Notes under the pieces: generated by a model | Database searches by the model: none | Told to the model about the DNA's origin: nothing | What the model saw: the letters and a program-made list of their open reading frames with translations, nothing else | Part shown: in pieces, positions 1,693 through 26,530 of the stretch | Numbering within the stretch: position 1 is the stretch's first letter | How the letters are laid out: each line of letters opens with the position of its first letter | From: Labilithrix sp. | Lineage (GTDB): Bacteria > Myxococcota_A > Polyangia > Polyangiales > Polyangiaceae | Direction: 5' to 3' | Length of the DNA stretch: 64,000 nucleotides | Assembly: GCA_046351255.1 (NCBI GenBank) | Contig: JAXLYU010000005.1 | Coordinates: 1,274,583-1,338,582, forward strand | Position numbers and translations under genes: made by a program

Positions 1693-2613
1693 TCACTGCA
1701 CGTCGAGCGTCAGGTTGTCCGTCCGGATTTGCGCGGCGGGCGTGTGCTTCTGCGCGAAGGGCATCCCCGGATGAAGCTCGACGGCGTCCGACGTGACGAA
1801 CCGGGGGTCCAGCGCGATGGGGCCGAACGGCGTCGTCCCGGTCGGCTTCGTGAGGCTGCCGCTCACGGTGCGGGCCTCGAGATCGAGCGTGATGTCGTAC
1901 GTGAGCCAGGCCCCGAGGACGCTCCCGACGTCGAGGGCCGCGATGTCGTGATTCACCTGATCGGGTGCGCCCTGATCCGGGCAGAACTCGTTGAGCTGAG
2001 CGCTGCCGCTCACCACCGTCGGCTGCAGCGCGCACTTGCCGGTCGAGTAGCCGAACTCGATCTCGTTGACCTCGACCCCGACACCGAGCGCGACGATCTG
2101 GAGGTCGAACTTCAGCTGGAGCTTCTTCGGGCTCTTGGGCAGCGGCACCACGTGAAAGCACTGCACGGAGACGTCGTTGACGCCGGTGCAGTGAAGGGCG
2201 TTGGTCGAGTCGCGACCGGGGCCCTCCACGGCGAGGGTCGAGCCGACGTGGTACTGCTCCGCGCTTGGACCGAGCGACTTCGAGTCGTAGTCGAGGCAGA
2301 CCTCGACGCTCGCCGGGACGCCGTCGCAGTAGTTCGCCGTGAGGCGCGCGTCGGCGCCGGTGTCCATGGTGGTGATGACGTCGGCCGGTGCGTCCGCGGG
2401 GGCGTCCGCGCTGCTGCCATCGAGCACGTCGACGGTGGTGACGTCCGAGCCGGGGGTCGCGTCGGTCGCCCCGATGACGTTGCCATCGCTATTCGAACCA
2501 CCTTCGGCGCCGCCGCCGTCTTCGCCCACCGCCTCGAGATCGCCCACGCCCGAGATCAGCGTGCAGCCGGCGCCGACCATCAGCACGATCGAGACAGCGG
2601 TGACGCGGCGCAC
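1693..2613 (-). CDS. lipoprotein (hypothetical), paralog of 2660..3490
   Basis: Signal peptide plus lipobox (VLMVGAGC). Shares colinear motifs with the upstream lipoprotein (CALQ..., ...TYD..L....V), indicating a tandem paralog pair. Confidence 0.8.
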   Translation of the reverse strand: MRRVTAVSIVLMVGAGCTLISGVGDLEAVGEDGGGAEGGSNSDGNVIGATDATPGSDVTTVDVLDGSSADAPADAPADVITTMDTGADARLTANYCDGVPASVEVCLDYDSKSLGPSAEQYHVGSTLAVEGPGRDSTNALHCTGVNDVSVQCFHVVPLPKSPKKLQLKFDLQIVALGVGVEVNEIEFGYSTGKCALQPTVVSGSAQLNEFCPDQGAPDQVNHDIAALDVGSVLGAWLTYDITLDLEARTVSGSLTKPTGTTPFGPIALDPRFVTSDAVELHPGMPFAQKHTPAAQIRTDNLTLDVQ

Positions 2614-2659
2614 CTCTCGGATGCTACCTCCTCCCCCCGTTGGCGGCGAGGCGCGCCCG

Positions 2660-3490
2660 TCACCGAGCGTAGGCGGCGAAATTGTCGAAGTAGAGGGAGA
2701 AAGGCTGGGTCTTCGACGGGCCGTACGTGCATCCTACGCGAACGCTGGCCGCGCTGGAGGGCATGGCGTGCGCGATGGATCCCGCGCTCGTGATCGCCGG
2801 AGCGTTTTCGGGCGTGACCGTCATGCTGAACTTCTTCGTGTCGAGGTGCGCGTCGATCCAGACGTTGACCCACTGTCCAGGCACGTCGGGAAGCGTCACA
2901 AAGCCGCGCTCCACGTCGTCGCCGTTCGAGCAGAACTCGTAGAGCGTCAGCTGCTTGTTGCTCGGGTCGAAGTGAAGCTGCAGCGCGCACTCATCGTTGT
3001 CGAACGGGAGATTCAGCTCGCCGAGCTCCATATCGAACACGATGTCGGCCGTGAGCTTCAGGTCGTAGGTCCAGATGATCTCGTTCGCGAGGCCGACCGC
3101 TTGCTGCACGAACGCGAGCCCCTCCTTGTCGGTCGTGGTCATCGCCGCGCGGAGGCAGCGGCCGGTGCTCCCGCTACCGGGGCTCTCGAGGCTCAGCGCA
3201 CCATTGCCTTGCTTGACCAGCGGAGGCACGCTGCCGTTGTCGAAGTCCTCGCACAGCTTCGGCTTCGCGGGGCGAGCCGCGCACGAGACGCCGACGCCGG
3301 AGGGGCCCGGTGGCCAGTCGGCGGTGCTGCCGCTGCTGCTGCTGCCGCTGCTGCTGCTGCTGCTGCTGCTCGCGCTCGTGGAGCCTCCATCGGACGCTCC
3401 CGCGTCCTTCGTCGCGCTGCTCTCTCCGCCGAACGACGAGCAGGCAAAGAGCCCGGTGGCCAGCACGCCGGCGATCGTTCGGGAGCGCAT
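2660..3490 (-). CDS. lipoprotein with poly-Ser linker (hypothetical), paralog of 1693..2613
   Basis: Lipobox LFAC, then a poly-Ser tract encoded by the (GCT/AGC)n repeat at 3326..3371. Colinear similarity to the neighbouring lipoprotein. Confidence 0.8.
   Translation of the reverse strand: MRSRTIAGVLATGLFACSSFGGESSATKDAGASDGGSTSASSSSSSSSGSSSSGSTADWPPGPSGVGVSCAARPAKPKLCEDFDNGSVPPLVKQGNGALSLESPGSGSTGRCLRAAMTTTDKEGLAFVQQAVGLANEIIWTYDLKLTADIVFDMELGELNLPFDNDECALQLHFDPSNKQLTLYEFCSNGDDVERGFVTLPDVPGQWVNVWIDAHLDTKKFSMTVTPENAPAITSAGSIAHAMPSSAASVRVGCTYGPSKTQPFSLYFDNFAAYAR
3326..3371. repeat. (GCT)n trinucleotide repeat encoding poly-Ser in lipoprotein 2660..3490
   Basis: Visible run of gctgctgctgccgctgctgct.... 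Confidence 0.8.
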
Positions 3491-3499
3491 CGGTCGATG

Positions 3500-4693
3500 C
3501 TATCGGCTTCGCGCGCCCTCGGCGAGGAGCTCCGCGTGGGCGACCACCGCGCGCGGGCTCATCTTGCCTTTGTAGACATAGAGCGACGCCGGGGCCGTCG
3601 CGTCGAGCACCTCCGCGCTCACGCGGAGCCGGGAGCTCACGGCGAAGACGACGAGCGCGCCGAGCGCGCCGGACTCGGCCAGCTCCACGCGCTTCCACAC
3701 CGCGTCGCGGCTCCAGTAGCCGAGCACCTCCACGAAGACGGACTTCTTGCTGCCTTTGCGGGTCAGCTCGAGGTCCGGGATGCACACGCCGAGGCCCGGC
3801 ACGTCGAGGATCGCCGTCGCCGGCTTGGCCTTCCAGTCGCCCTTGATGCCATCGATGAGCTCGCGCACCTCGTCGCTGAGGTGAAGGTCGTCGGCGGACG
3901 GAGCGCGGCCCTCGTCACGAGACTCCAGGTGGAACGTGAGCGGCTCGCGCCCCTTGCCCCAGCGGATGTCGGCGTCGAGCGTCCAGTGCTCCACCGGCCG
4001 CAAGGCGTTCAGGACGAGCGCGAGCTTCAGCCCGTACTTCGTGACCGCATCGAACATCGAGTAAGGACCGTCGATCGTGATCTTCCAGCCATCGTCGCTT
4101 CGCTCCGCGGCGAAGAGGAGCTGATGGAACTTGAGCTTCGAGAAGAAGGCGCGGACGAGGCCGGGAGAAGAAGAATGTATGGTGCACGTGACGCGCACGG
4201 CGGTGAGCAGCACCGCCTGCGCCTGGCCGAGCTCCCACTGCTCGACGAGCTCCGGCGCGCTCACGGCGGGCATCTCCTGGAGGACGTGCTCGCTCTTGAG
4301 ATCGGAGAAGAGCGTGCGCTCGATCTGCGCCGCGTCTCCCACGCTCGCGAGCACCGCGGCGCGATCGAACGAGCCCGCCTTTCGCGCCTCCGCCGCGCGG
4401 AGGAAGACCTCTCGGCGGAGCGCGATCGGGTCGAGCTCGGAGGACGCCTCGAAGTTGCACGCGTCCGCGGCGAGCTTCTTCAGGCCCGCGGCGAGCTTCG
4501 GGCGCTTCGCCTCCGCGATCGACGCGTCCCACGCGTCTTCCACCTCGTCGCGGCGCGCGCCGACCATCGCCTTCGCGTGATCGAGCAGGAGGGTCGCGAG
4601 GGCGAGCGCCTCCGCCCGAGCGCCGGCGTCGAAGGGGCGAAGGAGGAGCTGCCCGTCCTTGCGGCGCGCGTCGACGAGGTCAGCGGTAAGCAT
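3500..4693 (-). CDS. Bax1-like (DUF790) nuclease partner of XPB helicase
   Basis: 397 aa. Its start lies inside the last 14 bp of the XPB-like helicase gene (coupled operon), which is the known XPB-Bax1 arrangement. The DUF790 assignment is by context and size only, not by a motif-level match. Confidence 0.6.
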   Translation of the reverse strand: MLTADLVDARRKDGQLLLRPFDAGARAEALALATLLLDHAKAMVGARRDEVEDAWDASIAEAKRPKLAAGLKKLAADACNFEASSELDPIALRREVFLRAAEARKAGSFDRAAVLASVGDAAQIERTLFSDLKSEHVLQEMPAVSAPELVEQWELGQAQAVLLTAVRVTCTIHSSSPGLVRAFFSKLKFHQLLFAAERSDDGWKITIDGPYSMFDAVTKYGLKLALVLNALRPVEHWTLDADIRWGKGREPLTFHLESRDEGRAPSADDLHLSDEVRELIDGIKGDWKAKPATAILDVPGLGVCIPDLELTRKGSKKSVFVEVLGYWSRDAVWKRVELAESGALGALVVFAVSSRLRVSAEVLDATAPASLYVYKGKMSPRAVVAHAELLAEGARSR

Positions 4694-6056
4694 CGTGCTC
4701 GCGCCTCCGGTCGCTCGTGAAGGTCTCCGTCGTGGACTTGGTGACCACCTCGTAGAGGAGGGCGCGCTTGCCCTGCCGCTGGCGCAGGATGCGGCCGAGG
4801 CGCTGGACGTGCTCGCGCACGGAGCCCGAGCCCGAGAGCACCACCGCCACGTTCGCGTCCGGGACGTCGACGCCCTCGTTCAGCACCTTCGAGGTCGCGA
4901 CGGCGGTGTACTCGCCGCGCGCGAAGGCGCTCAGGATCTCGCTTCGCTCCGTCACCTTCGTCTGGTGCGTGATGACCGGCACGAGGTAGCGCCGCGCCAC
5001 GAGGTGCGCCGTCGCGTTGTCCTGCGTGAAGATGATCGTGCGATCGTTGCGGTGCACGTCGAGGAGGTGCTCGAGCCACACGAGCTTCGCGGTGGCGGCG
5101 AACGCGAGCTCGCGCTGGCGTCGGTACGCCTTCATCGCGCGGCGACCCTCCGGCGAGCGCGCCGCGCGCATGATGAACTCGCCGAAGCCGCGCGGGCTCG
5201 ACATGACGATGTGGTTCATGCCGATGAAGTCGCGGTAGATCTTGCGCTCTCGGTCGTGCTCGGCGCGCTCCTCCTCGGTGAGCTCGACCTCGACGCGCTC
5301 CGTCTCGTACTCGGCGAGGTACTCACCCGCGAGCTCGCCGATCTCGCGGCGGTACACCATCGGGCCGACGAGCTGATGGAACGCGGCCTCCATGCCGTCG
5401 GTTCGCTCCGGCGTCGCGGTGAGGCCGAGCCGGAACGGCGCGAGGCAGAGGCGCGCCGCGAGCGAGTAGCTCGGGCTCGGGAGGTGATGTACCTCGTCGA
5501 AGACGACCATCCCGAACTTCGCGCCGAAGTGCTCCATGTGGAGATGCGCGGAGTCGTAGGTCGTCACGGTGAGCGGCAGCACGGTGTGCTCGCCGCCACC
5601 GACGATACCGACGGGCACGCCGAACGTGGCGCGGAGCACGTCGTACCACTGGCGCACGAGCTCGAGGGTCGGCGCGACGACGAGCGAGCTCCGCTTCTTG
5701 TCGTCGATCGCCATCGTCGCGACCTGCGTCTTGCCAGCGCCGGTCGGCAGCACGACGACGCCGCGGCCGTGCGCCTTCTTCCACGCCGCGAGCGCCTCCG
5801 ACTGATACGGGCGCGGCTCGCGATGAACGAGCATGCCGTGCGGGAGCTCGGCGTACTGGCGCGCCTCGTCCTTGTATTCGATCCCGGCCTTGCGCAGCGC
5901 GAGCACGATCGGCGCGTACGCCACGGCGGGCGCACGATGGCAGCCAGTGCGTGCGTCCCAGCTCAGGTAGTCGGGCAGACGTGCGTCGTCCTTGTCCGCG
6001 CCTCTCAGCGCGAGCGTCCCGTTCTCGAAGGCGAGGATCACGATCGTGTGAGCCAC
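4680..6056 (-). CDS. XPB/ERCC3-like superfamily-2 DNA helicase
   Basis: Walker A VVLPTGAGKTQVA and DEAH-box motif II VVFDEVHHL are present. The N-terminal region resembles bacterial XPB homologs (PRPYQSEALAAW), and a helicase C domain is present (TSKVLNEGVDVP). Confidence 0.85.
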   Translation of the reverse strand: MAHTIVILAFENGTLALRGADKDDARLPDYLSWDARTGCHRAPAVAYAPIVLALRKAGIEYKDEARQYAELPHGMLVHREPRPYQSEALAAWKKAHGRGVVVLPTGAGKTQVATMAIDDKKRSSLVVAPTLELVRQWYDVLRATFGVPVGIVGGGEHTVLPLTVTTYDSAHLHMEHFGAKFGMVVFDEVHHLPSPSYSLAARLCLAPFRLGLTATPERTDGMEAAFHQLVGPMVYRREIGELAGEYLAEYETERVEVELTEEERAEHDRERKIYRDFIGMNHIVMSSPRGFGEFIMRAARSPEGRRAMKAYRRQRELAFAATAKLVWLEHLLDVHRNDRTIIFTQDNATAHLVARRYLVPVITHQTKVTERSEILSAFARGEYTAVATSKVLNEGVDVPDANVAVVLSGSGSVREHVQRLGRILRQRQGKRALLYEVVTKSTTETFTSDRRREHDAYR

Positions 6057-6080
6057 ACGATACGAGCTCTCGAAGGTCGC

Positions 6081-6977
6081 TCAGACGACGAAGTCGAGGA
6101 GCTGCACGCGCGTCGTGTAGTCGTCGAGCTTCGCTTTGTACTCGTCGATCGGCTTGTCGAGCTTCACGACCGTGCCGTTGTCGGCGGTCTCGCGGAGCAC
6201 GGAGCCGGAGAGGAGGATCTCGTCGGTCGGAACGACGAGCACGCCCGTCCAGAACTGGGGATCGGTGGCGACCTCGGAGGCCTTGCCCTCGATCTTCATG
6301 TAGCCCTCGGAGAGCTCGAGGACCGGCACCGTCTTGCCGTCGTCGAGGCGGACGTGCGCCGGATACGACGGCGTGGGCGACACGCGGTAGTTTCCGCGGC
6401 GGTTGTTGTTGATGAGCTGATCGAGCGTCTCGTAGAGCGGCTTCGACAGCGCGGTCTCTTCCGCCTCCTCGATCTGCTCGCGCATCTTCTTCATCGACTT
6501 CTGCGTGCGAACGAGGTTCGTGCGCATGTCGTCGAGGCGGCTGCGGTCGCGGCGGATCTTGTCGCTCACGAGCGAGAGGAGGTTCTTGTAGAAGTGAAGG
6601 CCGAGCTCCGGGTTCTTGTCGAAGAACCCGAGGAGGTCGTTGATGCCGATGGAGAGGACCTCGACGTCCGAGGTGGCCTTCGCCGTCGTGCTGCGCGGGA
6701 GGCCGGTGAGGGCGCCGAGCTCGCCGAGCGGGGCGAGGTTACGGAGGACGAGCCGCGTGCCCGCCGCGGCGGAGGGCTTGTCGCTCGAGGAGGTCTCCTC
6801 GATGACGACCTCGCCGGTCAGCAGGATCTCGAACTTGCTCGCGATCTCACCGGCTTCGAACAGGATGGTCCCCGTCGGATGCTTCACGGTGCGGAAGGCA
6901 TCGACGAGCGCGCCGAGGCGATCCTCGGGGATGCTCTGGAACAGCGGCAACGAGCGGAGGTCTTGGACGATCGTCAC
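6081..6977 (-). CDS. cyclic-nucleotide-binding domain protein with C-terminal PilZ-like domain
   Basis: The N-terminal half looks like a cNMP-binding (CAP-family) domain (ILFEAGE..., GELGAL...). The C-terminal half carries RRGNYR followed by ELSEGYM spaced like the PilZ RxxxR / DxSxGG motifs. Start codon is ambiguous: GTG 6977 preferred over ATG 7052, because 7052 would overlap the divergent gene at 7044. Confidence 0.65.
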   Translation of the reverse strand: MTIVQDLRSLPLFQSIPEDRLGALVDAFRTVKHPTGTILFEAGEIASKFEILLTGEVVIEETSSSDKPSAAAGTRLVLRNLAPLGELGALTGLPRSTTAKATSDVEVLSIGINDLLGFFDKNPELGLHFYKNLLSLVSDKIRRDRSRLDDMRTNLVRTQKSMKKMREQIEEAEETALSKPLYETLDQLINNNRRGNYRVSPTPSYPAHVRLDDGKTVPVLELSEGYMKIEGKASEVATDPQFWTGVLVVPTDEILLSGSVLRETADNGTVVKLDKPIDEYKAKLDDYTTRVQLLDFVV

Positions 6978-7043
6978 GGCTGACCCGTTAGCCTCGATCC
7001 GGGCGCGCCACAAGCAGGGCGAGCCCCGGCCGCTTTGTGATAC

Positions 7044-8360
7044 TTGGCGCACATGCGCGGCGTGGTCCGGGTCTTTTGCGGGCTTTTTGTGCTTCTCGGC
7101 CTCCTTGTCCCGCGAGCCGCCCTCGCGAATGGCCGATTTCCCGCGTCAAATGCGGTGATCTTCGATCCGCACGACGAGAAGACGATTTACGTCCGCGTCA
7201 CCTTCGGCCTCCTCGCGACGCACGATGGCGGCCAGACCTGGCGCTGGGTCTGCGAGCGGGCGATCGGCTTCAGCGGGGTCGAGGACCCGACCTACGTGGT
7301 CACCCCCAAGGGCACCCTCGTCGGCGGCACCTTCTCCGGGATCTCCGTGTCCCGGGACGGCGGCTGCGGCTGGGCTTTCGCGGGCGGGGCGGGGAGCGAG
7401 CTCGTGTCGGACCTCGCGATGCGCCCCGACGGGTCCATCGTGGGCATCAAGTCCGTCTACCGGAAGCCGAACGAGTACGACAACCGCGTCCTCGTCTCGA
7501 AGGACGACGCGCTCACCTTCAGCGCGTCGGGCGCCGCCATCGACCCGTCGCTGCTCCTCGAGAGTATCGAGATCTCGGACTCGGATCCCGTCCGCCTCTA
7601 CATCTCCGCCGTGCGCGGCGACTCGAAGGAGCGCGCCTCCGCCGTATTCCTTGCATCTTACAACGACGGCATGTCGTGGGCGGAGCGGAAGATCGACCTC
7701 CTCCCCGGTGAGACGGCGGCCTTCATCGCGATCGTCGATCCGAAGAAGCCCGATCGCGTCTACGTGCGTACGTCGGGCGCGCCGGAGGCGAAGACGCGCC
7801 TCCTCGTGACGGACGACGCGGGCAAGACCTGGCGCAAGGTCTTCGACTCGCCGAGCCCGCTCCTCGGCTTCGCCCTCAACGAGGACGGCAGCAAGGTCGT
7901 CATCGGCGCGAAGGAAGGTGTGCAGTATGCAACGACCGATACGTTCACCTTCACGAAGGGCTCCTCCGCCGAGATCCAGTGCCTCGGCATGAAGGGCGAC
8001 ACGCTCTGGTCTTGCTCGACCGAGCGCAGCGGGTTCTTCGTCGGGACCTCGAAGACGGGCGGCCGGAGCTTCAACGCGATGGTGCACCTCGAGGAGATCA
8101 AGGGACCGCTCGAGTGCCCGGGCGAGAGCGCGGTCGGGAAGCAGTGCGTGGTGGACTGGGTGAAGCAGCGCCGAGAGCTCGGCCTCCCGGACCCGAGCGA
8201 CAAGGGCAAGTCGGCCGACCCCGGCGCGCCGGCGCTCCGCGGGAGTGGGACGCAGACGAAGCGGCGCGGCCCCTCTCCGCTCGCAGCCGCCTTCGGCATC
8301 GCGGCGGTCGGGCTCATCGGCTACGAGATCCTCAAGCGATTGAGGCGCGGCCGGAAATGA
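7044..8360 (+). CDS. secreted BNR/Asp-box repeat protein (sialidase/Ycf48-like fold) with C-terminal TM anchor
   Basis: Signal peptide present. Several Asp-box repeats (DGGQTW, SRDGGCGW, NDGMSW, DDAGKTW). The C-terminal hydrophobic helix is followed by a basic tail RLRRGRK. Confidence 0.8.
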   Translation: MAHMRGVVRVFCGLFVLLGLLVPRAALANGRFPASNAVIFDPHDEKTIYVRVTFGLLATHDGGQTWRWVCERAIGFSGVEDPTYVVTPKGTLVGGTFSGISVSRDGGCGWAFAGGAGSELVSDLAMRPDGSIVGIKSVYRKPNEYDNRVLVSKDDALTFSASGAAIDPSLLLESIEISDSDPVRLYISAVRGDSKERASAVFLASYNDGMSWAERKIDLLPGETAAFIAIVDPKKPDRVYVRTSGAPEAKTRLLVTDDAGKTWRKVFDSPSPLLGFALNEDGSKVVIGAKEGVQYATTDTFTFTKGSSAEIQCLGMKGDTLWSCSTERSGFFVGTSKTGGRSFNAMVHLEEIKGPLECPGESAVGKQCVVDWVKQRRELGLPDPSDKGKSADPGAPALRGSGTQTKRRGPSPLAAAFGIAAVGLIGYEILKRLRRGRK

Positions 8361-9256
8361 TGGGCCTGGCGCGAAGGCCCATCCTGCTGCCTTTCCTGGA
8401 GCGGCGGGTGCGCGGGGCGCTCGGCCGGCGCGGCGTCGTCCATCGCTTCGTGGAGACGAGCGCCGGACGCATCGGCCTCTACGACATCCCCGGGAACGGA
8501 GACCTGCCCACGATCGTCATCCTGCATGGCATCTCCGCGTCGGGGACCGGCTTCGCCTCGCTCTTCATGCGTCTACGCCAGCACTGCAAGCGGGTGATCG
8601 TGCCCGACTATCCCGGCCATGGCCTCAGCTCGGATCCGACCGTGCCCCTCACCGTGGACGCGCTCTTCGACGCGATGGAAGGGGCGCTCGACGAGCTGCT
8701 CGGTGACGCCCCTGTCGTCGTGATCGGCAACTCCCTCGGCGGCGCCGTCGGGCTCGACTACGTCGCCAAGCGCGAGGCCAAGCGGCCCGGCTCCGTGAAG
8801 GCCGTCATCCTCCTCTCCCCGGCCGGCGCGCGCTCCTCCGCCGAGGAGTTCCGCGCGCTGATGGGCTCGTTCGGGGTGACGAACCGAGGCGAGGCGCTGG
8901 CGTTCTTGCGCCGCGTCTACCACCGGCCGCAGTGGATCTTTCAGCTCCTCGCGCACGAGCTGCCGGCGAACTTGCGGCGCCGGGGCGTGGCCGACCTCTT
9001 CGACTCGATCACGGTCGAGCGGAGCGTGCCCGAGGACGATCTGTCGAGGCTCGGCATGCCGATGCTGCTCGTGTGGGGGCAGTCGGAGCGGCTCTTCCCC
9101 GGCTCGCATCTCGACTGGTGGAAGCGGCACCTGCCCGAGCACGCGATCGTCGAGCAGCCGGAGGGCATGGGGCACTGTCCGCACGTCGACGCGCCGGGCC
9201 GACTCGCGCACCGGATCGTGTCCTTTCTCCGCGAAAATGTGACGATGCCGGCGTGA
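8358..9256 (+). CDS. alpha/beta-fold hydrolase
   Basis: HGxxxxG oxyanion region (VILHGISASG) and nucleophile elbow GNSLGG. Likely catalytic Asp/His lie in the C-terminal part (MGHCPH). Confidence 0.8.
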
Positions 9257-10239
9257 GCAGGAAGAGCGCCGGGAAGATCGAGAAGCTCGTTCGTATCGCC
9301 GTGCTCGTGGCGATGGCGGGCGCGCTCGTGGCCGCGGTCGCGCTGCCGCTCAACGCGAAGGACGCCTCGAAGGTGACGCGCTTCCTCGGGCGATTCCACA
9401 TCCTCGCGCTGCACGTGCCCATCGGCGTGCTCGTCCTCGCGCTGACGGGGGAGGCGGCCACGTTCCTGCGTCGCGGGCGTCGCATCGGCGACGTCGTCGT
9501 CGGCTTCGCGCTGCCGATGCTCGTCCTCACGGGCTTCGCCGCCGTCGTGCTCGGCCTGATGCTCGCGAACGGCGGCCACTACCCGAACAAGCTCGTCGCG
9601 CCGCACCGGAACCTCACCATCATCGGCATCTGCATCGCCGGCGTGGCGCGCTTGCTCTGGTCGAAGCGCCGGACGCGATGGCTTCACCGCGGGCTCCTCG
9701 CGAGCTCCGGCGGCGTCATGATGATCGGCGCGCACTTCGGCGGCTCGATGACCCACGGCGCGGACTACCTCTTCGCGCCGGTCGAGGACAAGCCGGCGCC
9801 GATCGTCGAGGACACGGACGCCGGCGCAGAGCCCGAGGTCATGGCTGGGAAGGACGCGTCCGCCAACGCGGTGGCGGCGACGGAGGCGGGCGCGCCGGCG
9901 GACGCCGCGGTCGTCGCGGATGCAGCGGTCGTCGCCGACGCCGCGCCGCCCGACGCGGGACCGCCGAAGCCCTCGTCGAAGCAGCAGGCGCAGGCGGTCG
10001 TGAATCGAAGGTGCTCGCCCTGCCACACGACGAACATGAAGGGCGGCCTCCGCATGACGGACGTCTCGAAGCCCGGCAAGCGCGGTGTCCTCGTGCCGGG
10101 CAACCCCGAGGCGAGCAGCATGTACACGCGGCTTCTCCTGCCGAAGGACGACGACGATCACATGCCGCCCGAGAACGAAGCGCAGCTGACGCGCGGAGAA
10201 ATCGCGATCATTCGCGCATTTATCGCCGATCAGAAGTAG
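9253..10239 (+). CDS. membrane protein with C-terminal c-type cytochrome-like domain (single CSPCH heme motif)
   Basis: GTG start overlaps the upstream stop (GTGA junction). About five predicted TM helices. C-terminal soluble domain carries a CxxCH motif (RCSPCHTT), resembling a planctomycete-type cytochrome c domain. Confidence 0.6.
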   Translation: MSRKSAGKIEKLVRIAVLVAMAGALVAAVALPLNAKDASKVTRFLGRFHILALHVPIGVLVLALTGEAATFLRRGRRIGDVVVGFALPMLVLTGFAAVVLGLMLANGGHYPNKLVAPHRNLTIIGICIAGVARLLWSKRRTRWLHRGLLASSGGVMMIGAHFGGSMTHGADYLFAPVEDKPAPIVEDTDAGAEPEVMAGKDASANAVAATEAGAPADAAVVADAAVVADAAPPDAGPPKPSSKQQAQAVVNRRCSPCHTTNMKGGLRMTDVSKPGKRGVLVPGNPEASSMYTRLLLPKDDDDHMPPENEAQLTRGEIAIIRAFIADQK

Positions 10240-10287
10240 CCGTGTTTTTGTGCGCAACCGGTCGCACAACCGGTCGATAGGCCGTCC

Positions 10288-11079
10288 ATGACCACGATCT
10301 CACGGGCTCATGCGGACATGGCGCGCTATCCGGTGAACGCGGAGGAGCCGAGCGACGTCTCGGGCCTCCTCACCCAGCAGAGCGACGACCTCGCCGGGAT
10401 GGCGAAGGAGCACGTCCAGGGCCACGAGGAGACCGCGACGCCGTCGACCCGGATGGATCGGATCGCGCAAGGCGTCGCGGCTCGCCAGTACCGCGAGCAG
10501 CTCCAGACCACGAACGGCATCCTCCAGGCCCAAGGCCTCGACGTCGCGCTCGCCGGCCACGATCCGAGCTACCGCGAGGCGATGGCCGCGCCGATCGATC
10601 CGCGCGACCTCCGCTCGGTCGCCGGCCACCACACCGCGGTCGCGCAGGCGTACGAGAAGGAGGTCGTCCACGTGGGCCTCCTCGGCGCGCTCGACCTCCC
10701 CGGCGGCTACAAGGACGTCCGCGCGAACGACTTCAGCGTGCCGCCCGGCTCGGACGCGGCGACGAACGTGACCGCGAAGCTGAAGGCCGATCCGCTGGCG
10801 ATGGCGCGTCTCCAGGCGAAAGCGGATCTCGGCATGGCTGCGGCGCGCGACATGATCCCGACGCTCGAGCGAACCGGGATGTCGCGAGAGGACTTCTTCG
10901 CGTCGAGGCCGGAGGTCGCGCGCGCCTACGCGGAAGATCCGGCGTTCCGCGAGGGCTTCGACGCGTACGTGTATGCCACCAACCACGCGAAGCAGGAGCT
11001 CCCCGCGCTCGACGCGCGGCTCGACCGCGAAGCGATCGAGGATCACCGCGCGCTGGCCTACCTCTCGCTCCCGGCTTGA
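10288..11079 (+). CDS. hypothetical protein
   Basis: Protein-like composition with high GC3. The opposite-strand ORF 10300..11115 is R-rich and rejected. Confidence 0.55.
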   Translation: MTTISRAHADMARYPVNAEEPSDVSGLLTQQSDDLAGMAKEHVQGHEETATPSTRMDRIAQGVAARQYREQLQTTNGILQAQGLDVALAGHDPSYREAMAAPIDPRDLRSVAGHHTAVAQAYEKEVVHVGLLGALDLPGGYKDVRANDFSVPPGSDAATNVTAKLKADPLAMARLQAKADLGMAAARDMIPTLERTGMSREDFFASRPEVARAYAEDPAFREGFDAYVYATNHAKQELPALDARLDREAIEDHRALAYLSLPA

Positions 11080-11121
11080 GGCTATGGTCACCGCGCCAAC
11101 GGGGGCGGGACCCACGAACCA

Positions 11122-13764
11122 ATGTCGAAGCTCGTTTCATCGCTCCTCTTCGCGTCGCTCCTCGTCGTAGCAGCGTGCGGCTCCGACTCCGGCGGCGCGG
11201 CCCCGGCGACGACCGCGGACGAGGTCGACGTGGTCCCTTTCGCGTCGACGAAGATGCTGACGGCCGCGGACCTCGCGTCGCTCCAGCCCGATCGCGAGGA
11301 CGGGAGGCTCGTCTTCGATCGCGCTCCGGCGATCCTCGCCGACGTGGCGCCTGGGACCGTGATGGTCGCGGGCGTGTCGCCGTCGACGCCGCATGGTCTC
11401 TTGCGCATGGTGACCAACGTCGCGCGCTCGGGCGACGTGCTCGCGCTCGACACGGCCGGAGCGCCCCCGCAGCTCGCGTTCAGGAAGCTGCATGCGCGCG
11501 TCGCGCGTCCCGTGTCGCTCGACGACGCCGAGCCGCAGGTGAACGCGTCCATCGAGCCGCTCGCGAACGTGGGGGGGACGTCGGAGCGGAAGCAGCCCGT
11601 GAACGTGATCCTCTTCGACGGCGACGGGGACAAGGCGACGACGGACGATCAGCTCCGCATCGAGGGCTCGTTCCAGGGCGCGATTCGCTACGACCTCTCG
11701 CTCGACGTCGACTGGGGCGCCGTCGACAAGCTGCCGGACGTGGTGCAGAGCTGCCTGACCGCCCTCGCGGACGCGATCCGCGGCAAGAAGAAGCCGAGCT
11801 GCAAGGTCACCGATCTCCTGCCGGAGGTCCGGGTGAAGTTCACGGTCGATCCGAGCGTCGCCGCCGACCTCCACATGGTCGGGCAAGCCTCGCTCGCCTT
11901 CGAGAAGGAGCTCGACATCGCGGTCGTGCCGCTGGCACCGCTCGTGCTCGGCCCCCTCGTGTTCCTGCCGCGGCTCGAGGTGATCGCGAAGGTGGAAGGC
12001 GGCGCGAGCGCGTCCTTCAAGACGGGCGTCGCGGGCCACATGACGCTCACCACCGCCGTCTCCGTCACGTCGAAGACGGCCGGCAACCCGCAGTTCTCGC
12101 CGCCCGCGATCAAGGACAAGGGCTACACCGTCGACGAGCCGGAGGTCGGTCTCCACGCGCATGCGCAGGCGAACGCGGGCGTTCGGCTCACGATGCCGCT
12201 CTACGGAACGGTCGGCCCGTACGCGACCGCAGAGGCGACGATGGCGCTCGAGGCCGATCCGTCGAAGACGCCTTGCTGGTCACTCCGCGCGGGCCTCGAG
12301 AGCGTCATCGGCGTTCGCATCACGACGCCCGCGCTCCCGTTCCTCGGGGCGGTGGAGCTCGTCGACTGGAAGACCGCGCCCTTCAAGGCGATCGACGAGG
12401 TGGTGGCGAGCGGCGCGTGCAAGGATCCGCCGCCGGGTCAGTCGCGTCTCCCTCCGGGCAGCGGCCCGGACGCGCCGGCGCTGCGCGATCCGCTCTTCAC
12501 GCCGTGGTCGCACGTCGAGGAGGGCACCGTCGATACGGCGGCCGCGTCTGGCCCCTCGGTCACGGGCATCGTGTTCTCGGACCTCGTGCGCGCGATCGAC
12601 GGGCGCTGGCTCGTGGCGGGCAGCGACGCGCGCACGCTCGTGAAGATCGACGACGCGGGCAAGCTGATCTGGCGCGCGGGCTACGTCACGGGCGATCCGG
12701 AGACGCCGCTCTCCGTCCTGCGCACGCTGCCGCGACGCGACGCGTCCATCACCGCCCTCGCGCTCGGCGCCACGGGCAGCTCGTTCACGCTCCTCGATCT
12801 GGGCCAGTCGGGCGCGGTGCGGCGCGCCACCTCGTACTCGCTCCCGCTCGACGTCTGCGCCGCCCCCACGCCACGCGTGCTGGCGACGGACGCAGGCACG
12901 GGCCTCCTCGTCATGGGCGAGTGCGCGAGCCAGGGCAAGACGTTCGTGGTGCACGTCGACCGCGGCGGCGCCCTCCTCGACGCGCGCCTCTGGTCGATCG
13001 ACGGCTCGAGCCACTTCGGTCCCACCACCTTCACGCGCACGATGACCGGCCAGCTGGTCCTCGCGGGAGAGGTGAGCGGGGCGGACGGCGACGGCATGTT
13101 CGTCGCGCGCCTCGACGACGCGGCGACGATCACGTCGATCGACGCGTACACCGCGTGCGAGAGCGCGTTCAACCTCTCGCCCACGACCGCGGTGCCCGCG
13201 GAGTCGAACGGCCTCACCGTGGTCGGCGGCAGCTTCGCGCAGTCGCGAGCCTTCGTCGCGCGCCTCCACGAGGACGGCACGGTCGGCTTCGTGACCTATC
13301 CCGGCATCAAGGACGGCGCGTCGCCCGTCTTCGTCGCAGGCAGCATCGCGGAGCTCCCCACCACGGGCTTCGTGATGGGCGTCTCGACGGTGGAGCTGAC
13401 GGCGGACGGCCCAGGCAACGTGCCAGGCATCGCGCTCCTGGGCCTCGACGCGCAGGGCAAGTCGGTGTGGAACCGGCGCTACACGCTCGCCGGTCACTCG
13501 GCGTCGTTCCCCTCGCTCCGTCTGACCACCGACGGCGGCGCGCTCGTCTCGAGCTTCGCCACGACGACGGACCTCGCGAGCGCAGCGACGTGGTCGATGA
13601 AGGCCTTCGCGAAGGACGGCACCGTGAACGACGCCGCCGTCACGTCGACGAGCCTCGCGCTCGACGACGGCCCCGCCGACTGCGCGCTGAAGCGCGGCGC
13701 CCTCGCCCCCAAGGTCGAGGACGTCGCGATCGAGACGACCGCGCTCAGCGTCACCCGACGCTGA
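11122..13764 (+). CDS. large secreted lipoprotein (hypothetical, 880 aa)
   Basis: Lipobox LLVVAAC; long continuous high-GC3 frame. Antisense ORFs 11137..12162 and 12280..13497 look like shadows. Confidence 0.8.
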   Translation: MSKLVSSLLFASLLVVAACGSDSGGAAPATTADEVDVVPFASTKMLTAADLASLQPDREDGRLVFDRAPAILADVAPGTVMVAGVSPSTPHGLLRMVTNVARSGDVLALDTAGAPPQLAFRKLHARVARPVSLDDAEPQVNASIEPLANVGGTSERKQPVNVILFDGDGDKATTDDQLRIEGSFQGAIRYDLSLDVDWGAVDKLPDVVQSCLTALADAIRGKKKPSCKVTDLLPEVRVKFTVDPSVAADLHMVGQASLAFEKELDIAVVPLAPLVLGPLVFLPRLEVIAKVEGGASASFKTGVAGHMTLTTAVSVTSKTAGNPQFSPPAIKDKGYTVDEPEVGLHAHAQANAGVRLTMPLYGTVGPYATAEATMALEADPSKTPCWSLRAGLESVIGVRITTPALPFLGAVELVDWKTAPFKAIDEVVASGACKDPPPGQSRLPPGSGPDAPALRDPLFTPWSHVEEGTVDTAAASGPSVTGIVFSDLVRAIDGRWLVAGSDARTLVKIDDAGKLIWRAGYVTGDPETPLSVLRTLPRRDASITALALGATGSSFTLLDLGQSGAVRRATSYSLPLDVCAAPTPRVLATDAGTGLLVMGECASQGKTFVVHVDRGGALLDARLWSIDGSSHFGPTTFTRTMTGQLVLAGEVSGADGDGMFVARLDDAATITSIDAYTACESAFNLSPTTAVPAESNGLTVVGGSFAQSRAFVARLHEDGTVGFVTYPGIKDGASPVFVAGSIAELPTTGFVMGVSTVELTADGPGNVPGIALLGLDAQGKSVWNRRYTLAGHSASFPSLRLTTDGGALVSSFATTTDLASAATWSMKAFAKDGTVNDAAVTSTSLALDDGPADCALKRGALAPKVEDVAIETTALSVTRR

Positions 13765-13783
13765 GCGTGCGGTCGTCCGAGGA

Positions 13784-14425
13784 TCAGCCGCCCATCTGGG
13801 CGAGGATCGGCAGCGCCTCCTTGAGGACCTTCTGGAACGACGGGCGCTCCATGAGGCGATTCGCGTAGCCGACGACGTTCTTCTTGCCGTCGTACGGGTG
13901 CACCTTCTTGCAGTAGAAGAGGCACGGCGCGGCGGCGCAGTCGGCCATCGAGAAGTCGTCGCCCATCGCCCAGGTCTTGTTCGCCATCTGGGCGTCGAGC
14001 ATCGTGAGCGCCGTCTCGAGCCGCGCGTGCGCCTGCTCGACGCCGAAGGGGTCGTTCTTCCCCGCCGGGCGCATGCCGTCGAAGAAGACCTTCTGCATGG
14101 GGTCGTTGACGTAGCAGTCCATGAAGCGATCGCGGTGGCGCACCTGACGCGCGAGATCCGGATCGTCGGGGATCAGCTTGGTGCCGCCGGGGTGATGCCG
14201 GTCGATGTACTCGATGATGATCGAGGACTCCGGCACCAGCCAGTTGTCCTTGTCCTCCACCGCGAGGAACGGGACCTTGCCGATCGGGTAGATCTTCTCG
14301 TATTCGGCGCGGGCGGCGGGATCCATCAGGTTCACGACCGCGGGCGTGAAGTCGACGTTCTTTTCGTAGAGCGCCATGAGCGCCTTCATCGAGTACGACG
14401 ACACGGGATTGTAATAGAGCTTCAT
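13784..14425 (-). CDS. glutathione S-transferase
   Basis: GST N-terminal thioredoxin-like motifs (MKLYYNPVSSYSMK, IGKVPFL) and a C-terminal helical domain. Start chosen at MKLYY. Confidence 0.85.
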   Translation of the reverse strand: MKLYYNPVSSYSMKALMALYEKNVDFTPAVVNLMDPAARAEYEKIYPIGKVPFLAVEDKDNWLVPESSIIIEYIDRHHPGGTKLIPDDPDLARQVRHRDRFMDCYVNDPMQKVFFDGMRPAGKNDPFGVEQAHARLETALTMLDAQMANKTWAMGDDFSMADCAAAPCLFYCKKVHPYDGKKNVVGYANRLMERPSFQKVLKEALPILAQMGG

Positions 14426-14494
14426 CGAGCGTCCTCCTGTCGAGCCGCGGGCGATGAGACCCGGCGCCGGACAGGAGGTCAACCCACGCCGGGA

Positions 14495-16237
14495 TCACTT
14501 GATGGCGCTCGCGCAGGCCTCGCCGCAGGGGCCCTGGATGCAGGTGCCGATGGCCTCGCTCTTCGAGGCCTCGGGCGTCGCCCCGCACTTGTCGTCGCAG
14601 GCGACATCGACGGAGGCGCAGCTGCTGAGGCACTGGGAGTAGCAGCCCTCGCCCGAGCAGCCGGCGCAGGATTGATGGCACGCGCGGCGGGAGTCGTCGC
14701 ACTTCTGGTAGCAGCGATCGACGGTCTCGACGCACGTGGGATCACAGGCGGTGCACTGGCCACCACACGTCGAGTTGATGCATCGCTCGCACTCGGCGGG
14801 GAGCGTCACCTCGGAGTCGACGAGCTGCAGGACAGCCGAGCAATCGCCCTTGGCGCACGTGTTCTCGGCGATCGAGTAGGGGACGGTGAGCGCCGCGCTC
14901 GTGTCCACGCTGTACGACGTCGTGCCATGACAGTCGGTCGAGACGATGAGCGTGGCCGCACCGATGTCGGGGATCTGCACGACCTGCACGTTGGTCGCGC
15001 CATCGACCACGACCTGATGGATGCGCGAGGGCTGATTGACGGAGAGCGTTCCGTCGCCCTTCGCGATCGCGCCGATGAGGGAGATGAGCGGATCGACGAC
15101 GCTCCGGATCTTCGCGTCGATCGCGGAGGCGAACTCGGACAGCGTGGGGTCCGTGGACGACAGGACCTGTGTCGCGGCGTCGGGCGTCACGCCGGCCGGA
15201 GCGGCGGGCAGAGTGACCGTCTCCTTGGTCTTCGAAGCGACGGTGCCCTCGAGGTGACTCGCGAGTCGATCGAGCGGCTGGAGCGGCACGTTCGTCGCCT
15301 CGCTCACGGCGCTGATGGTGAGGTCGATGACGTTGCCCGCGCGCTCGCTCGCGCCGAGCGCCTGTGCCGCCTGGCTGTAGCCTTGACCGGAGAAGGTCGA
15401 CGCGGACACGGTCGCCTTCACCGCCGTCTTCCCGCACTCGACGCTGCTCTCCGCGACGGCGCGCTGCAGCTTCTCGGCCGGGATGGACTGCACGTCCGGT
15501 GTGTTGTTCGTCTCCGCGAGGCGAAGGTCCTGCTCGATGAGCTTCGCCTTGGCGAGCCGCGCGCCCATGCCGAGCTCGTCGAACGCCTTCTTGGCCTCCG
15601 CCTTCGTCGCGGTCGAGGGTAGGCCGAGCGACTGGTTGATGACGGTGAGGTCGCCGGACGAGGCGGAGTCGATCTTCTCGCCGGTGGGCGCGGTCCGGAT
15701 CTCGACCGCCTTGTGCACGCCCTTCGCGGCGCCGTAGGCCACGATGGCGAGGCCAACGATCACGACCGCGTCGTCGATGCCGAAGATCGCGCTACGAACA
15801 GCCCCCGTCCGGCCGTCGATCGTCCGCGGCCGAAGCGCGAGGACGCCCATGCCGCCGGTGCCGGTGCCGGTGCCCCCCGTCCCGCTCAGCGCCGAGGCGG
15901 TGGCGAGCCACGCGGCGTGCGCGTGGACCGCCGTGGCGAGGGCCTCGGCCTGCGCGCCGCTGACGTCGAGCGGCGGGAGCGCCTTCGTGAGATCGAGCGT
16001 GTAGTTCGCGCTCGCGATCTTGAGCACCTCGAGCTCCGTCGCGTACGCCTCGCTCGCCGCGCGCCCCTCGGCGCTCATGGCGACGGGCCGGACGTCGACC
16101 TTCGTCGGATTCGACGGCGAGCTCCCGCTGCTCGACGACGACGACGACGATGACGAGCCCGAGGAGGATGACGAGCAAGCAACCGCGAGCGTGGCGACGA
16201 CGCCAAACGCGCCCGCGAGGGCATTTCCAAATCGCAT
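14495..16237 (-). CDS. Cys-rich secreted lipoprotein with poly-Ser linker (hypothetical)
   Basis: Internal start at MRFGNALAGAFGVVATLAVAC (lipobox), then poly-Ser encoded by the (GAC/GTC)n repeat. The C-terminal approx 120 aa contain many CxxC/CxC pairs. Confidence 0.75.
   Translation of the reverse strand: MRFGNALAGAFGVVATLAVACSSSSSGSSSSSSSSSSGSSPSNPTKVDVRPVAMSAEGRAASEAYATELEVLKIASANYTLDLTKALPPLDVSGAQAEALATAVHAHAAWLATASALSGTGGTGTGTGGMGVLALRPRTIDGRTGAVRSAIFGIDDAVVIVGLAIVAYGAAKGVHKAVEIRTAPTGEKIDSASSGDLTVINQSLGLPSTATKAEAKKAFDELGMGARLAKAKLIEQDLRLAETNNTPDVQSIPAEKLQRAVAESSVECGKTAVKATVSASTFSGQGYSQAAQALGASERAGNVIDLTISAVSEATNVPLQPLDRLASHLEGTVASKTKETVTLPAAPAGVTPDAATQVLSSTDPTLSEFASAIDAKIRSVVDPLISLIGAIAKGDGTLSVNQPSRIHQVVVDGATNVQVVQIPDIGAATLIVSTDCHGTTSYSVDTSAALTVPYSIAENTCAKGDCSAVLQLVDSEVTLPAECERCINSTCGGQCTACDPTCVETVDRCYQKCDDSRRACHQSCAGCSGEGCYSQCLSSCASVDVACDDKCGATPEASKSEAIGTCIQGPCGEACASAIK
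16132..16170. repeat. (GAC)n-type imperfect trinucleotide repeat encoding poly-Ser in lipoprotein 14495..16237
   Basis: gacgacgacgacgacgatgacgag... (AGC-type Ser codons on the coding strand). Confidence 0.7.
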
Positions 16238-16399
16238 GATCGGCCATTCGAGCAAGGCGAGTACCAGCCTGCCGCACCACGAACATGCGCTCTTTCGCAG
16301 GCGCATCTCGCAGGACCTGCGCCGGCCGGCATGTCCTGCGTACGGCGCTTCGAGGCGGTCCTCATCGACGGGCGACGCCAAGCGGGCTACGAGGTGACG

Positions 16400-17041
16400 A
16401 TGTCGATCATTTTCGCGGCCGCAGGCAGGGATGGTTACGTGGTCGCGAGCGATAGCCGGCGCCACGCGCCCGATTCGACGAGCCTCACCGACGACGCGGA
16501 CCAGACCTTCGAGCTCTGCAGCAAGTACCTCGCGGCGAGCGCCGGTCTCCCCGAGATCGACGGCGTGTCCGTGCGCGATCTCGTCGTCCGCCGTCGCGGC
16601 GAGCGCTCGGAGCTCAACGCTCCGGACCGCATCGCGGACGATCTGGCAGAGCACCTCGTGGGGCTCCTCAACGCGACGAAGTCGGTCGAAGCGGTCGAGC
16701 TCGTCCTCGTCGGCGATCGACGCGGCCCGTCCGGCTTCCGCATCGAGACGAAGAACGACGAGCCGGGAACGTACGCGGCGACGCCGCGCGACCCAGCCAC
16801 CCTCAAGGCTCCGTACCTCACCGCGGGCGACGGCAGCGCGACCAGCGGCGCGCAGCTCGGCGTTCACAAGTTCATGGGCGCGAAGGACCGCACGCGGATG
16901 CTGAAGCAGCTCCCGGAGAACGCGCTCAAGGACTGCGCCCGCCAGACGATCGCGAAGGGCGTGGCGGCCACCACGAAGACGCCGAGCGGCGCCGACGCCT
17001 GCGGTGGCGACCCGCGCGTCCTCTACCGCGTGTATGTGTAG
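16400..17041 (+). CDS. hypothetical protein, possible Ntn-hydrolase/proteasome-beta-like fold
   Basis: N-terminal MSIIFAAAGRDGYVVASDSR resembles the proteasome/HslV N-terminal nucleophile segment (TxIxxGxxGVVxAxDxR). Weak inference only. Confidence 0.55.
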   Translation: MSIIFAAAGRDGYVVASDSRRHAPDSTSLTDDADQTFELCSKYLAASAGLPEIDGVSVRDLVVRRRGERSELNAPDRIADDLAEHLVGLLNATKSVEAVELVLVGDRRGPSGFRIETKNDEPGTYAATPRDPATLKAPYLTAGDGSATSGAQLGVHKFMGAKDRTRMLKQLPENALKDCARQTIAKGVAATTKTPSGADACGGDPRVLYRVYV

Positions 17042-17184
17042 CGTCGTCCCGGCCGCGTCTTGGCGGAGGCGGACCAGCCACGCCGGATGCGTGCATGGTC
17101 AATTCTTCACGGTCGCTCCGATCGAAGAGATCACTACGGACGATCGCGGTCGCGGACCGTATACCGATCTCCATCGGGGGGGCC

Positions 17185-18252: not shown

Positions 18253-18701
18253 CCGACGACGACACGCGTGCGGACATCGTCGTTCTACTGGCCGCGGTCG
18301 CGAGACGTGCGGGTGGCTCGCTCGAGAAGGAAGACGCCGCCGGGGCGCTCCGCGCCTGGCGCGGGCTTCTCGCGGGCCGGTGGTCGCTCGTCGATCAGTT
18401 CGATCGCGCCGGCCGGCGCTTCCTGGTCGCGCGGCCGACGGAGCCGACGGAGCAGGCAGCCGCGGCGCTGTCCGCGCGCGAGCAGCAGGTCGTCGTCTAT
18501 GCATCGCTCGCCCAGTCGAACAAGGCGATCGCCCTCGAGCTCGGGCTCTCCGAGGCCACCGTGTCCGAGCACCTCCACGCAGCGGCACGGAAGCTCGGCG
18601 TCCGCTCGCGCCTGGAGCTCGTTCGCCTCTTCGCGATGGCGCAGGTCGAGGTGGTCGACGGCTCAGCGCCCGAAGACCCGAGCCGCGAGCTCGACCCGTG
18701 A
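18249..18701 (+). CDS. LuxR-family HTH transcriptional regulator (small, solo)
   Basis: C-terminal GerE/LuxR HTH (LSAREQQVVVYASLAQSNKAIALELGLSEATVSEHLHAAARKLGV). GTG start overlaps the PAP2 stop (GTGA). Confidence 0.7.
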   Translation: MTDDDTRADIVVLLAAVARRAGGSLEKEDAAGALRAWRGLLAGRWSLVDQFDRAGRRFLVARPTEPTEQAAAALSAREQQVVVYASLAQSNKAIALELGLSEATVSEHLHAAARKLGVRSRLELVRLFAMAQVEVVDGSAPEDPSRELDP

Positions 18702-19007: not shown

Positions 19008-19010
19008 CGA

Positions 19011-23499: not shown

Positions 23500-23521
23500 G
23501 CCGCCTCTTAGCGTTGGATGC

Positions 23522-26515: not shown

Positions 26516-26530
26516 TGATCCGCGGGTAAC

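Follow-up and report, generated by a model that had tools for sequence, protein, structure and literature searches.

The XPB helicase and the Bax1 nuclease are encoded by adjacent genes in the archaea Archaeoglobus fulgidus and Sulfurisphaera tokodaii (PDB 6P66 and 6P4F/6P4O/6P4W), where XPB acts by opening DNA bubbles, at whose junction Bax1 makes its incision (PMC7293015, PMC7672443). Bacterial homologs of XPB, such as Rv0861c of Mycobacterium tuberculosis, have also been described, and the 2012 paper on that protein stated that an XPB-Bax1 complex had yet to be identified in any bacterium (PMC3353954). Here we describe a locus in a 64,000-nucleotide (nt) stretch of contig JAXLYU010000005.1 of Labilithrix sp. 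(the window, G+C about 69%), in which genes of the same two families follow, on the minus strand, a gene for a protein with a cyclic-nucleotide-binding (CNB) domain and a PilZ-fold domain (the receptor). Our comparative analysis indicated that XPB-Bax1 is the invariant unit and that the receptor, a single-copy signalling gene, is older and more widespread. On balance we lean towards the explanation that the locus is a chromosomal repair operon together with a co-expressed general second-messenger adaptor, which is neither a dedicated nuclease switch nor part of a defence system.

Pfam profile searches matched all three gene products, in agreement with a preliminary description of this DNA that had called them XPB, DUF790/Bax1 and cyclic-nucleotide-binding proteins. 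The XPB protein matched XPB_DRD (PF18458; 3.5e-18, residues 8-65), ResIII (5.9e-25) and ERCC3_RAD25_C (1.6e-19), and shares with the archaeal helicases the damage-recognition domain (DRD), the first helicase domain (HD1), the thumb and the second helicase domain (HD2) over nearly its full length (E ~1e-104). The archaeal sequences aligned in this way, for which structures have been solved, were those of S. tokodaii (window XPB residues 23-453, E 4e-104) and A. fulgidus (residues 6-452, E 1.4e-103). The Walker A sequence of the window XPB is LPTGAGKT and motif II is DEVH (FDEVHH). Its RED motif reads R-T-D (TATPERTDG) at the place where S. tokodaii has R-D-D, with the arginine and the final aspartate kept and the central acidic residue not.

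The Bax1 protein matched Pfam PF05626 (DUF790) with 247.9 bits (E 1.9e-73) over profile positions 1-385 of 387, and aligned to the Bax1 chains 6p4f, 6p4o, 6p66 and 8gy8 of the PDB. Alignment with 8gy8 and 6p4f showed that the acidic residues of the nuclease domain are also kept, in the motifs DEVRE, IPD (cIPDl) and VEV (fVEVlGyW), and that they correspond to the acidic triad E275/D305/E318 reported in the Bax1 structure (PMC7293015). The alignments with the archaeal chains cover only the first 326-345 residues of the latter, the region of the described C-terminal domain being unmatched. Both XPB and Bax1 look catalytically intact. Because both score far below the NCBIfam cut-offs for the archaeal equivalogs (XPB, NF045503, 206 bits against 610; Bax1, 101 bits against 500), they are homologs, and not strict equivalogs, of the archaeal proteins. 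The pair in the window differs from the archaeal pair in its bacterial host (Labilithrix-like Polyangia), its shorter Bax1 (397 amino acids), its R-T-D motif and the signalling gene ahead of it.

The 14-nt overlap of XPB and Bax1 given in the preliminary description was confirmed, and a GGAGG element lies 10 nt ahead of the Bax1 ATG, an arrangement which, as far as sequence can tell, implies translational coupling of helicase and nuclease. The overlap was found in all relatives for which coordinates were read (L001, L003, L022, L087, L088, L090-L093 and the Deinococcus locus L094), and the offset of high-scoring segment pairs was consistent with it in 55 metagenomic loci carrying an XPB match. 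In L094, on plasmid unnamed5 of Deinococcus sp. KNUC1210, a helicase-DUF790 pair (3389-5987; XPB 47% and Bax1 31% identical to the window proteins) has the same gene order and the same overlap as the window, without a receptor gene. Because the overlap is kept in all relatives that were read, including the Deinococcus plasmid, XPB-Bax1 is considered the real unit, and the overlap itself appears to be of ancient origin in this pair.

A Bax1-based scan of metagenomes identified 80 XPB-Bax1 loci with Bax1 identities of 43-79%, of which 30 had adequate flanks on both sides. The receptor gene was present in two of these 30, namely in L098, which has the gene order of the window, and in L114, in which the order is XPB-Bax1-receptor with a 34-nt gap. 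In the other 28 loci, which have no receptor gene, XPB was 58-71% identical (one case being unclear) and Bax1 44-55% identical to the window proteins, a divergence similar to that of the sister clade, described below, in which receptor and pair are unlinked.

The minus-strand open reading frames 3500-4693, 4680-6056 and 6081-7052 have a coding-type G+C content at third codon positions of 0.92-0.94. By the same measure, six minus-strand genes form a single run, which comprises a gene at 50-1588, two lipoprotein genes, Bax1, XPB and the receptor gene (Table 1) and is divergent from a plus-strand gene starting at 7053. The receptor gene starts with a GTG at 6977, where homologs start precisely with M[ST]IVxDLRSLPLFQ; this supports the start site previously proposed, and the three co-directional genes have the coordinates first given for them. 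The junction between the receptor gene and XPB is 24 nt and not 25 nt as had been noted, the latter number being the difference of the coordinates. A terminator scan detected no hairpin-type site between the receptor gene and Bax1, including this spacer. The divergent intergenic region at 6978..7052 is presumed to be the promoter region of the minus-strand run; a scan with the sigma-70 consensus, which is not informative for this phylum, found no promoter sites. In relatives, the junction between receptor gene and XPB measures -4, +1 and +6 nt (the nearest relatives) or 34-106 nt. Given so short a spacer in the window (24 nt) and in the nearest relatives (-4 to +6 nt), and given that no terminator was found, the receptor, XPB and Bax1 genes are very probably co-transcribed in the window, as the earlier proposal of an operon had it.

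Alternatively, XPB-Bax1 might be a mere neighbour of the receptor gene and be transcribed separately, from a promoter within that gene or immediately behind it. A spacer of 67-106 nt in four relatives (L007, L008, L010 and L027) would give room for such a promoter, and XPB-Bax1 works as a two-gene unit elsewhere, but the short spacers in the window and in its nearest relatives leave no room outside the coding sequence, and the lack of a terminator-like hairpin also argues against it, so that separate transcription is regarded as improbable.

The receptor was compared with two groups of known proteins, the CRP/FNR factors and the PilZ adaptors. Residues 31-122 matched Pfam PF00027 (cNMP_binding) at 2e-10, with 40.9 bits against a cut-off of 27.5, and the top Foldseek matches of the full-length model were the CNB domains of CRP (M. 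tuberculosis), GlxR, Thermus CAP, MloK1 and PKG (E ~1e-8). The receptor shares with the CRP/FNR factors the N-terminal cNMP-binding beta-roll and the long helix that follows it. In the phosphate-binding cassette GELGALTGLPRSTT, G85, E86 and L87 are kept in 75 of 76 homologs and R95 in 73 of 76; G85, E86 and R95 are presumed, by analogy with CAP and PKA, to be ligand contacts. The linker is predicted by AlphaFold 2 (AF2) to form helices at residues 123-171 and 178-191, with a predicted local distance difference test score (pLDDT) of 48-69.

The AlphaFold model of residues 172-298 (pLDDT 84, predicted template modeling score 0.74) consists of a beta-barrel followed by a helix, and 29 of its top 31 Foldseek matches in the PDB were PilZ domains, including those of BcsA, Alg44, MrkH, PlzA, MotI, MapZ, PA4608 and YcgR (E 2e-4 to 4e-2, template modeling scores 0.45-0.6). 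This predicted barrel and C-terminal helix would be shared with the PilZ adaptors MapZ/PA4608, YcgR, MotI/DgrA, Alg44, BcsA, MrkH and PlzA, as are the RRxxxR motif before the barrel, a Ser-containing motif on an early strand and, probably, action by protein contact. In the RRGNYR motif just before the barrel, R194 is kept in all 76 homologs and R198 in 55. In ELSEGY, S223 is likewise kept in 76 of 76, glutamate stands in place of the canonical aspartate, and the last glycine is replaced by tyrosine, histidine or phenylalanine. The receptor differs from the PilZ adaptors in this E-x-S-E-G-[YHF] sequence in place of [DN]xSxxG, in its N-terminal cNMP domain, in its tiny family and in the lack of a PilZ profile match. 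The Pfam PilZ profile (PF07238) gave no match at E<=0.1 with the whole receptor or at E<=1 with residues 172-298, NCBIfam gave none either, and a phmmer search of the C-terminus against PDB sequences returned only noise. A distant relative, P0317, provided the sole transitive link to PilZ, with 22.0 bits against a cut-off of 22.5. The PilZ-like C-terminus that had been proposed earlier is therefore upheld by the predicted fold and by the positions of RRGNYR and ELSEGY, and not by the Pfam profile; by these models it is PilZ-like in fold and partly in motif, with cyclic di-GMP (c-di-GMP) as a putative ligand.

The receptor and its homologs P0001-P0120 are named "Crp/Fnr family transcriptional regulator" or "CRP-like cAMP-binding protein" by NCBI and JGI. 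No helix-turn-helix family was found in the receptor with Pfam or NCBIfam, and its C-terminus is a beta-barrel and a helix. The "transcriptional regulator" part of the name is wrong or misleading, because, in contrast to the CRP/FNR factors, a PilZ-fold barrel takes the place of the C-terminal helix-turn-helix domain. Because neither a DNA-binding nor an enzymatic output domain was identified in the receptor, it must act by protein-protein contact. The LLDFVV sequence at the end of the C-terminal helix is invariant, and the last residues of the protein, DDYTTRVQLLDFVV, are almost invariant across Polyangia, which suggests that the C-terminus may be a docking element.

A search with the C-terminal domain, which covered 1.84 billion cluster representatives (clusters at 50% identity), retrieved only about 77 relatives. 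About half of these were full-length proteins of approximately 285-300 amino acids with the domain at the C-terminus, and most of the others were shorter fragments; all six of the longer relatives that were scanned had a cNMP-binding domain. The receptor thus belongs to a small family specific to Polyangia with a fixed two-domain architecture. No description of this operon or of this architecture was found in the literature on DUF790, bacterial Bax1 and CNB-PilZ fusions.

Receptor loci were collected from one genome per species, and a locus was counted as unlinked only if at least 2 kb was available on both sides. The scan yielded 80 loci with identities of 38-71%, one locus per assembly, from Labilithrix, Polyangium, Kofleriaceae, Haliangium and other Polyangia. 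XPB and/or Bax1 were located within 7 kb of the receptor gene in eight of the 80 loci. In seven of these, XPB-Bax1 lies directly downstream of the receptor gene, as in the window; in the eighth, that of Labilithrix luteola, it lies upstream, with one unrelated gene between. Neither XPB nor Bax1 was present in 55 of the 80 loci, all with adequate flanks, and the other 17 were too short to judge. All-against-all clustering of the genes flanking the 80 receptor loci revealed no conserved receptor partner, the neighbours elsewhere being heterogeneous (a PP2C phosphatase, an acyltransferase-like protein, an enoyl-CoA hydratase, membrane proteins). Recurrent genes for proteins of about 260-280 amino acids downstream of the receptor were considered as a shared partner and rejected, since they turned out to belong to unrelated families.

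In neighbour-joining trees, all receptors from loci with the order receptor-XPB-Bax1 fell into one clade, and the trio was found in every locus of this clade that could be inspected (L001, L003, L007-L011, L027, L051, L088 and L091-L093). About 15 further linked cases are probable, co-location being deduced only from an identical length of the longest contig in receptor and Bax1 clusters; 21 such cluster pairs were found, several of which duplicate directly inspected loci. Within the linked clade, receptor identity falls to about 61% and the flanks vary on both sides: upstream genes encode a BNR protein, a sulfatase or a protein kinase, and downstream genes encode lipoproteins, a fatty-acid desaturase or an SNF2 helicase. 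The receptor gene is thus syntenic with XPB-Bax1 in related genomes, and neither this comparison nor the domain searches refute the preliminary description on the terms that it had set. XPB-Bax1 was absent from the surroundings of every receptor locus in the sister clade. One metagenome-assembled genome of that clade, RYN_370 (GCA_028287065.1), keeps both on separate contigs: the receptor gene follows a PP2C phosphatase gene (L006), and 22 nt separate XPB-Bax1 from a preceding gene for a secreted poly-Ser protein (L087). Taken as the rough guide that neighbour-joining trees provide, these data point to one or two linkage events in a single family-level group, with linkage lost in several branches.

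In the unlinked clade, XPB is preceded at 22-28 nt by a gene for a protein of 578-629 amino acids (L087 3799-5535, L090 3729-5618) with long poly-Ser/Asp tracts and no Pfam match above noise, whose hydrophobic-plus-basic C-terminal tail suggests a sorting-signal-like anchor. Its product, a secreted poly-Ser protein, was compared with the receptor and with the rest of the window and resembled neither.

The receptor of L114 (1593-5035 of metagenome contig Ga0123357_10001195, order XPB-Bax1-receptor) groups with that of L. luteola. Its phosphate-binding cassette is degenerate (SEL for GEL and PHTT for PRST), and RRANYR and EVSEGY are intact. On the L. luteola DSM 27648 chromosome (NZ_CP012333.1; L022), the gene between XPB-Bax1 and the receptor gene is a secreted esterase-like gene (5960-6919), and the XPB homolog (3279-4648) is in two frames, with tblastn matches at 3279-3710 to residues 3-146 and at 3716-4645 to residues 149-458. 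In this genome, the only one from a cultured relative, the split reflects either a sequencing error or a frameshift that would make the gene a pseudogene.

These findings bear on a second explanation, in which the receptor, on binding cyclic AMP or cyclic GMP (cAMP/cGMP) and/or c-di-GMP, would dock on XPB or Bax1 and switch DNA opening or incision on or off, tying repair to the nutritional or developmental second-messenger state and acting in trans where the genes are unlinked. PilZ adaptors typically act by protein contact, as do MapZ on CheR1, YcgR and MotI, which are among the fold matches, and both the cNMP pocket and the RRxxxR motif are conserved in the receptor. The trio is kept with short junctions across the linked clade despite receptor identities down to about 61% and variable flanks, and linked and unlinked receptors are nearly identical at conserved positions, which fits one and the same role in either setting, cis or trans. 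Yet the receptor is unlinked in 55 of the 80 receptor loci and in 28 of the 30 XPB-Bax1 loci, the linkage traces to the few events in one group noted above, and the Deinococcus pair has no such partner. Tight packing with unrelated genes for secreted proteins is moreover normal here, with 9 nt between Bax1 and the following lipoprotein gene in the window and 22-28 nt ahead of XPB in the unlinked clade. Direct regulation is therefore possible but doubtful.

Several observations nevertheless weigh against a receptor that is only a co-expressed adaptor. A receptor without an output domain requires a partner, and none was identified. The trio is intact in about 13 inspected loci of one clade while both flanks have changed at least four to five times, and the other gene order, XPB-Bax1-receptor, is present in L114 and also in L. 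luteola, where one further gene is inserted. A neighbourhood that is retained through reshuffling is a classical hint of functional coupling, and the neighbour-joining trees are only a rough guide to the number of linkage events.

The coupling between receptor and XPB-Bax1 is most likely at the level of co-expression, because the receptor family is older and broader than the linkage and because its sequence does not change where it is linked. Only two conservative fixed differences, T289V and V291L, separate linked from unlinked receptors, and a functional shift in the linked receptors was rejected on this comparison. The receptor is probably a general signalling adaptor. In the repair operon with a co-expressed adaptor that we favour, XPB, with its damage-recognition domain and its superfamily 2 (SF2) motor, would open or translocate on distorted DNA. 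Bax1, made in step with XPB and in a fixed ratio to it through the 14-nt overlap and the internal Shine-Dalgarno sequence, would cut the junction of single-strand and double-strand DNA with its PD-(D/E)XK-type acidic triad. We infer this activity from the archaeal enzymes, the locus itself displaying the homology, the conserved residues and the gene structure. The receptor would be a stand-alone second-messenger receptor made of a cNMP-binding domain, a helical linker and a divergent PilZ-fold domain, whose gene may have come to lie beside XPB-Bax1 in the ancestor of one Labilithrix-like clade and would share their promoter in the window.

The presence of a nucleotide-binding sensor gene next to genes for a helicase and a PD-(D/E)XK nuclease also raises the question of an anti-phage or anti-plasmid system, in which an infection signal sensed by the CNB/PilZ protein would unleash the helicase-nuclease, as in CBASS, Thoeris and type III CRISPR. 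PADLOC (PADLOC-DB v2) was run on the six proteins of the gene run and found no model for Bax1, for the receptor or for their other neighbours. In its helicase core, XPB is similar to PbeA and Dnd-restriction helicases (PADLOC, NCBIfam), but the PADLOC match to PbeA and similar proteins concerns only a generic helicase core. On either side of the trio there are insertions of variable genes, but neither the window genes scanned from 50 to 30510 nor the flanks in relatives include a cyclase or other signal generator. The receptor is single-copy, conserved and mostly located away from the nuclease. Across species, XPB keeps an identity of 77-80% where that of Bax1 is 55-64%, which together with the shared chromosomal backbone is a housekeeping pattern.

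Bax1 homologs were found in none of 50,697 phage records and on 37 of 72,556 plasmids, of which 35 were non-mobilizable, mainly Deinococcus and haloarchaeal records. These counts do not support an origin of Bax1 from phages or plasmids, the plasmid copies being on mostly non-mobilizable megaplasmids. The backbone, XPB conservation and the lack of a cyclase, of a PADLOC match and of phage homologs led to the conclusion that the locus is a conserved chromosomal repair gene pair and not a defence island. The defence reading is not supported, and a role in defence is considered very improbable. The resemblance to signal-activated nucleic-acid targeting drawn in the preliminary description does not hold; with CBASS, the ancillary nucleases of type III CRISPR and Thoeris the locus has no more in common than a superficial likeness, a sensor for nucleotides placed next to a nuclease, and it differs from them in its conserved backbone, its mostly unlinked sensor and the absence of a cyclase and of a PADLOC match.

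Table 1. Coordinates of the receptor-XPB-Bax1 locus and of adjoining features in the window
Feature	Position	Strand	Description
Receptor gene	6081..6977	-	298 amino acids; cNMP-binding domain, long helical linker, PilZ-fold C-terminal domain
Cyclic-nucleotide-binding domain	6612..6887	-	Receptor residues 31-122; phosphate-binding cassette GELGALTGLPRSTTA intact
Helical linker	6402..6611	-	Receptor residues 123-192; AF2 prediction of low confidence
PilZ-fold domain	6084..6401	-	Receptor residues 193-298 (predicted fold); RRGNYR, beta-barrel with ELSEGY, C-terminal helix ending LLDFVV
Receptor-XPB spacer	6057..6080	-	24 nt
XPB (Rad25/ERCC3-type) SF2 helicase gene	4680..6056	-	458 amino acids; damage-recognition domain, two helicase domains, thumb region
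XPB/Bax1 overlap	4680..4693	-	14 nt; GGAGG upstream at 4704-4708
Bax1/DUF790 PD-(D/E)XK-type endonuclease gene	3500..4693	-	397 amino acids
Divergent intergenic region	6978..7052		75 nt; between receptor gene and secreted BNR/sortilin-like gene (7053-8360, +)
Two lipoprotein genes	1693..3490 (2660-3490 and 1693-2613)	-	Co-directional passengers, outside the conserved unit

The chromosomal backbone shared with relatives extends on both sides of the trio. Sulfatase and response-regulator genes, located at 21193-26659 in the window, lie directly upstream of the receptor gene in L001, L003, L010, L011 and L051, and a block of CDP-alcohol phosphatidyltransferase, zf-PARP and ABC-F genes lies downstream in most relatives with gene tables, with only the transferase gene present in L092. 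The zf-PARP gene, located between those for the CDP-alcohol phosphatidyltransferase and the ABC-F ATPase, encodes a protein of about 185 amino acids with a PARP-type zinc finger, a DNA-nick-binding domain, and is found a few genes downstream of the trio (L001 13028-13585, L003 13064-13621, L088 12570-13124, L091 13314-13868). In L088, a gene for a LigD-like ligase/primase-polymerase lies two genes upstream of the receptor gene.

In the window, about 14 kb (7053-21182) of mostly secreted-protein genes or genes of unknown function separate the receptor gene from the sulfatase and response-regulator genes, and this is an insertion-prone region. It contains the BNR/sortilin-like gene, a cytochrome-c-like gene, genes for beta-propeller proteins and a glutathione S-transferase, a PAP2 gene and a tRNA-Ser(GGA) gene (19605-19692), the latter being the only match in an Rfam scan of the window. 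ARAGORN also predicted a tRNA-Ala(GGC) at 21202-21279, antisense to the 3' end of the sulfatase gene, with which it overlaps; Rfam did not confirm it, and it is probably a false positive.

The two genes downstream of Bax1 were previously described as paralogous lipoprotein genes with poly-Ser linkers. Both products have lipobox cysteines (LFAC in 2660-3490 and GAGC in 1693-2613) and they are distant paralogs (24% identity, E 1e-7), but the poly-Ser run is present only in the first, the second having an Asp/Ala/Pro-rich linker. Neither had a match in Pfam or in the sequence clusters of the 86 compared loci. Genes without annotation that resemble them in size and in position are present in the nearest relatives L091 and L092.

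In conclusion, this locus is not to be regarded as a new defence system. The linkage, limited to one lineage, makes XPB-Bax1 one testable candidate target of the receptor, which on present evidence is a neighbour and not a dedicated regulator. It is unlikely that the dual adaptor, through its cNMP and PilZ-like domains, physically gates XPB-Bax1 such that cAMP/cGMP and/or c-di-GMP license unwinding and incision; if it did, the locus would encode the first XPB-type repair machine under second-messenger control, and the Polyangia-specific CNB-PilZ family would gain its first assigned function. The receptor family is a candidate integrator of two nucleotide signals. Bacterial XPB-Bax1 pairs are essentially uncharacterised, and the locus in the window, together with the 14-nt overlap that extends from Labilithrix to Deinococcus, offers clean and apparently intact examples with which they can be tested.

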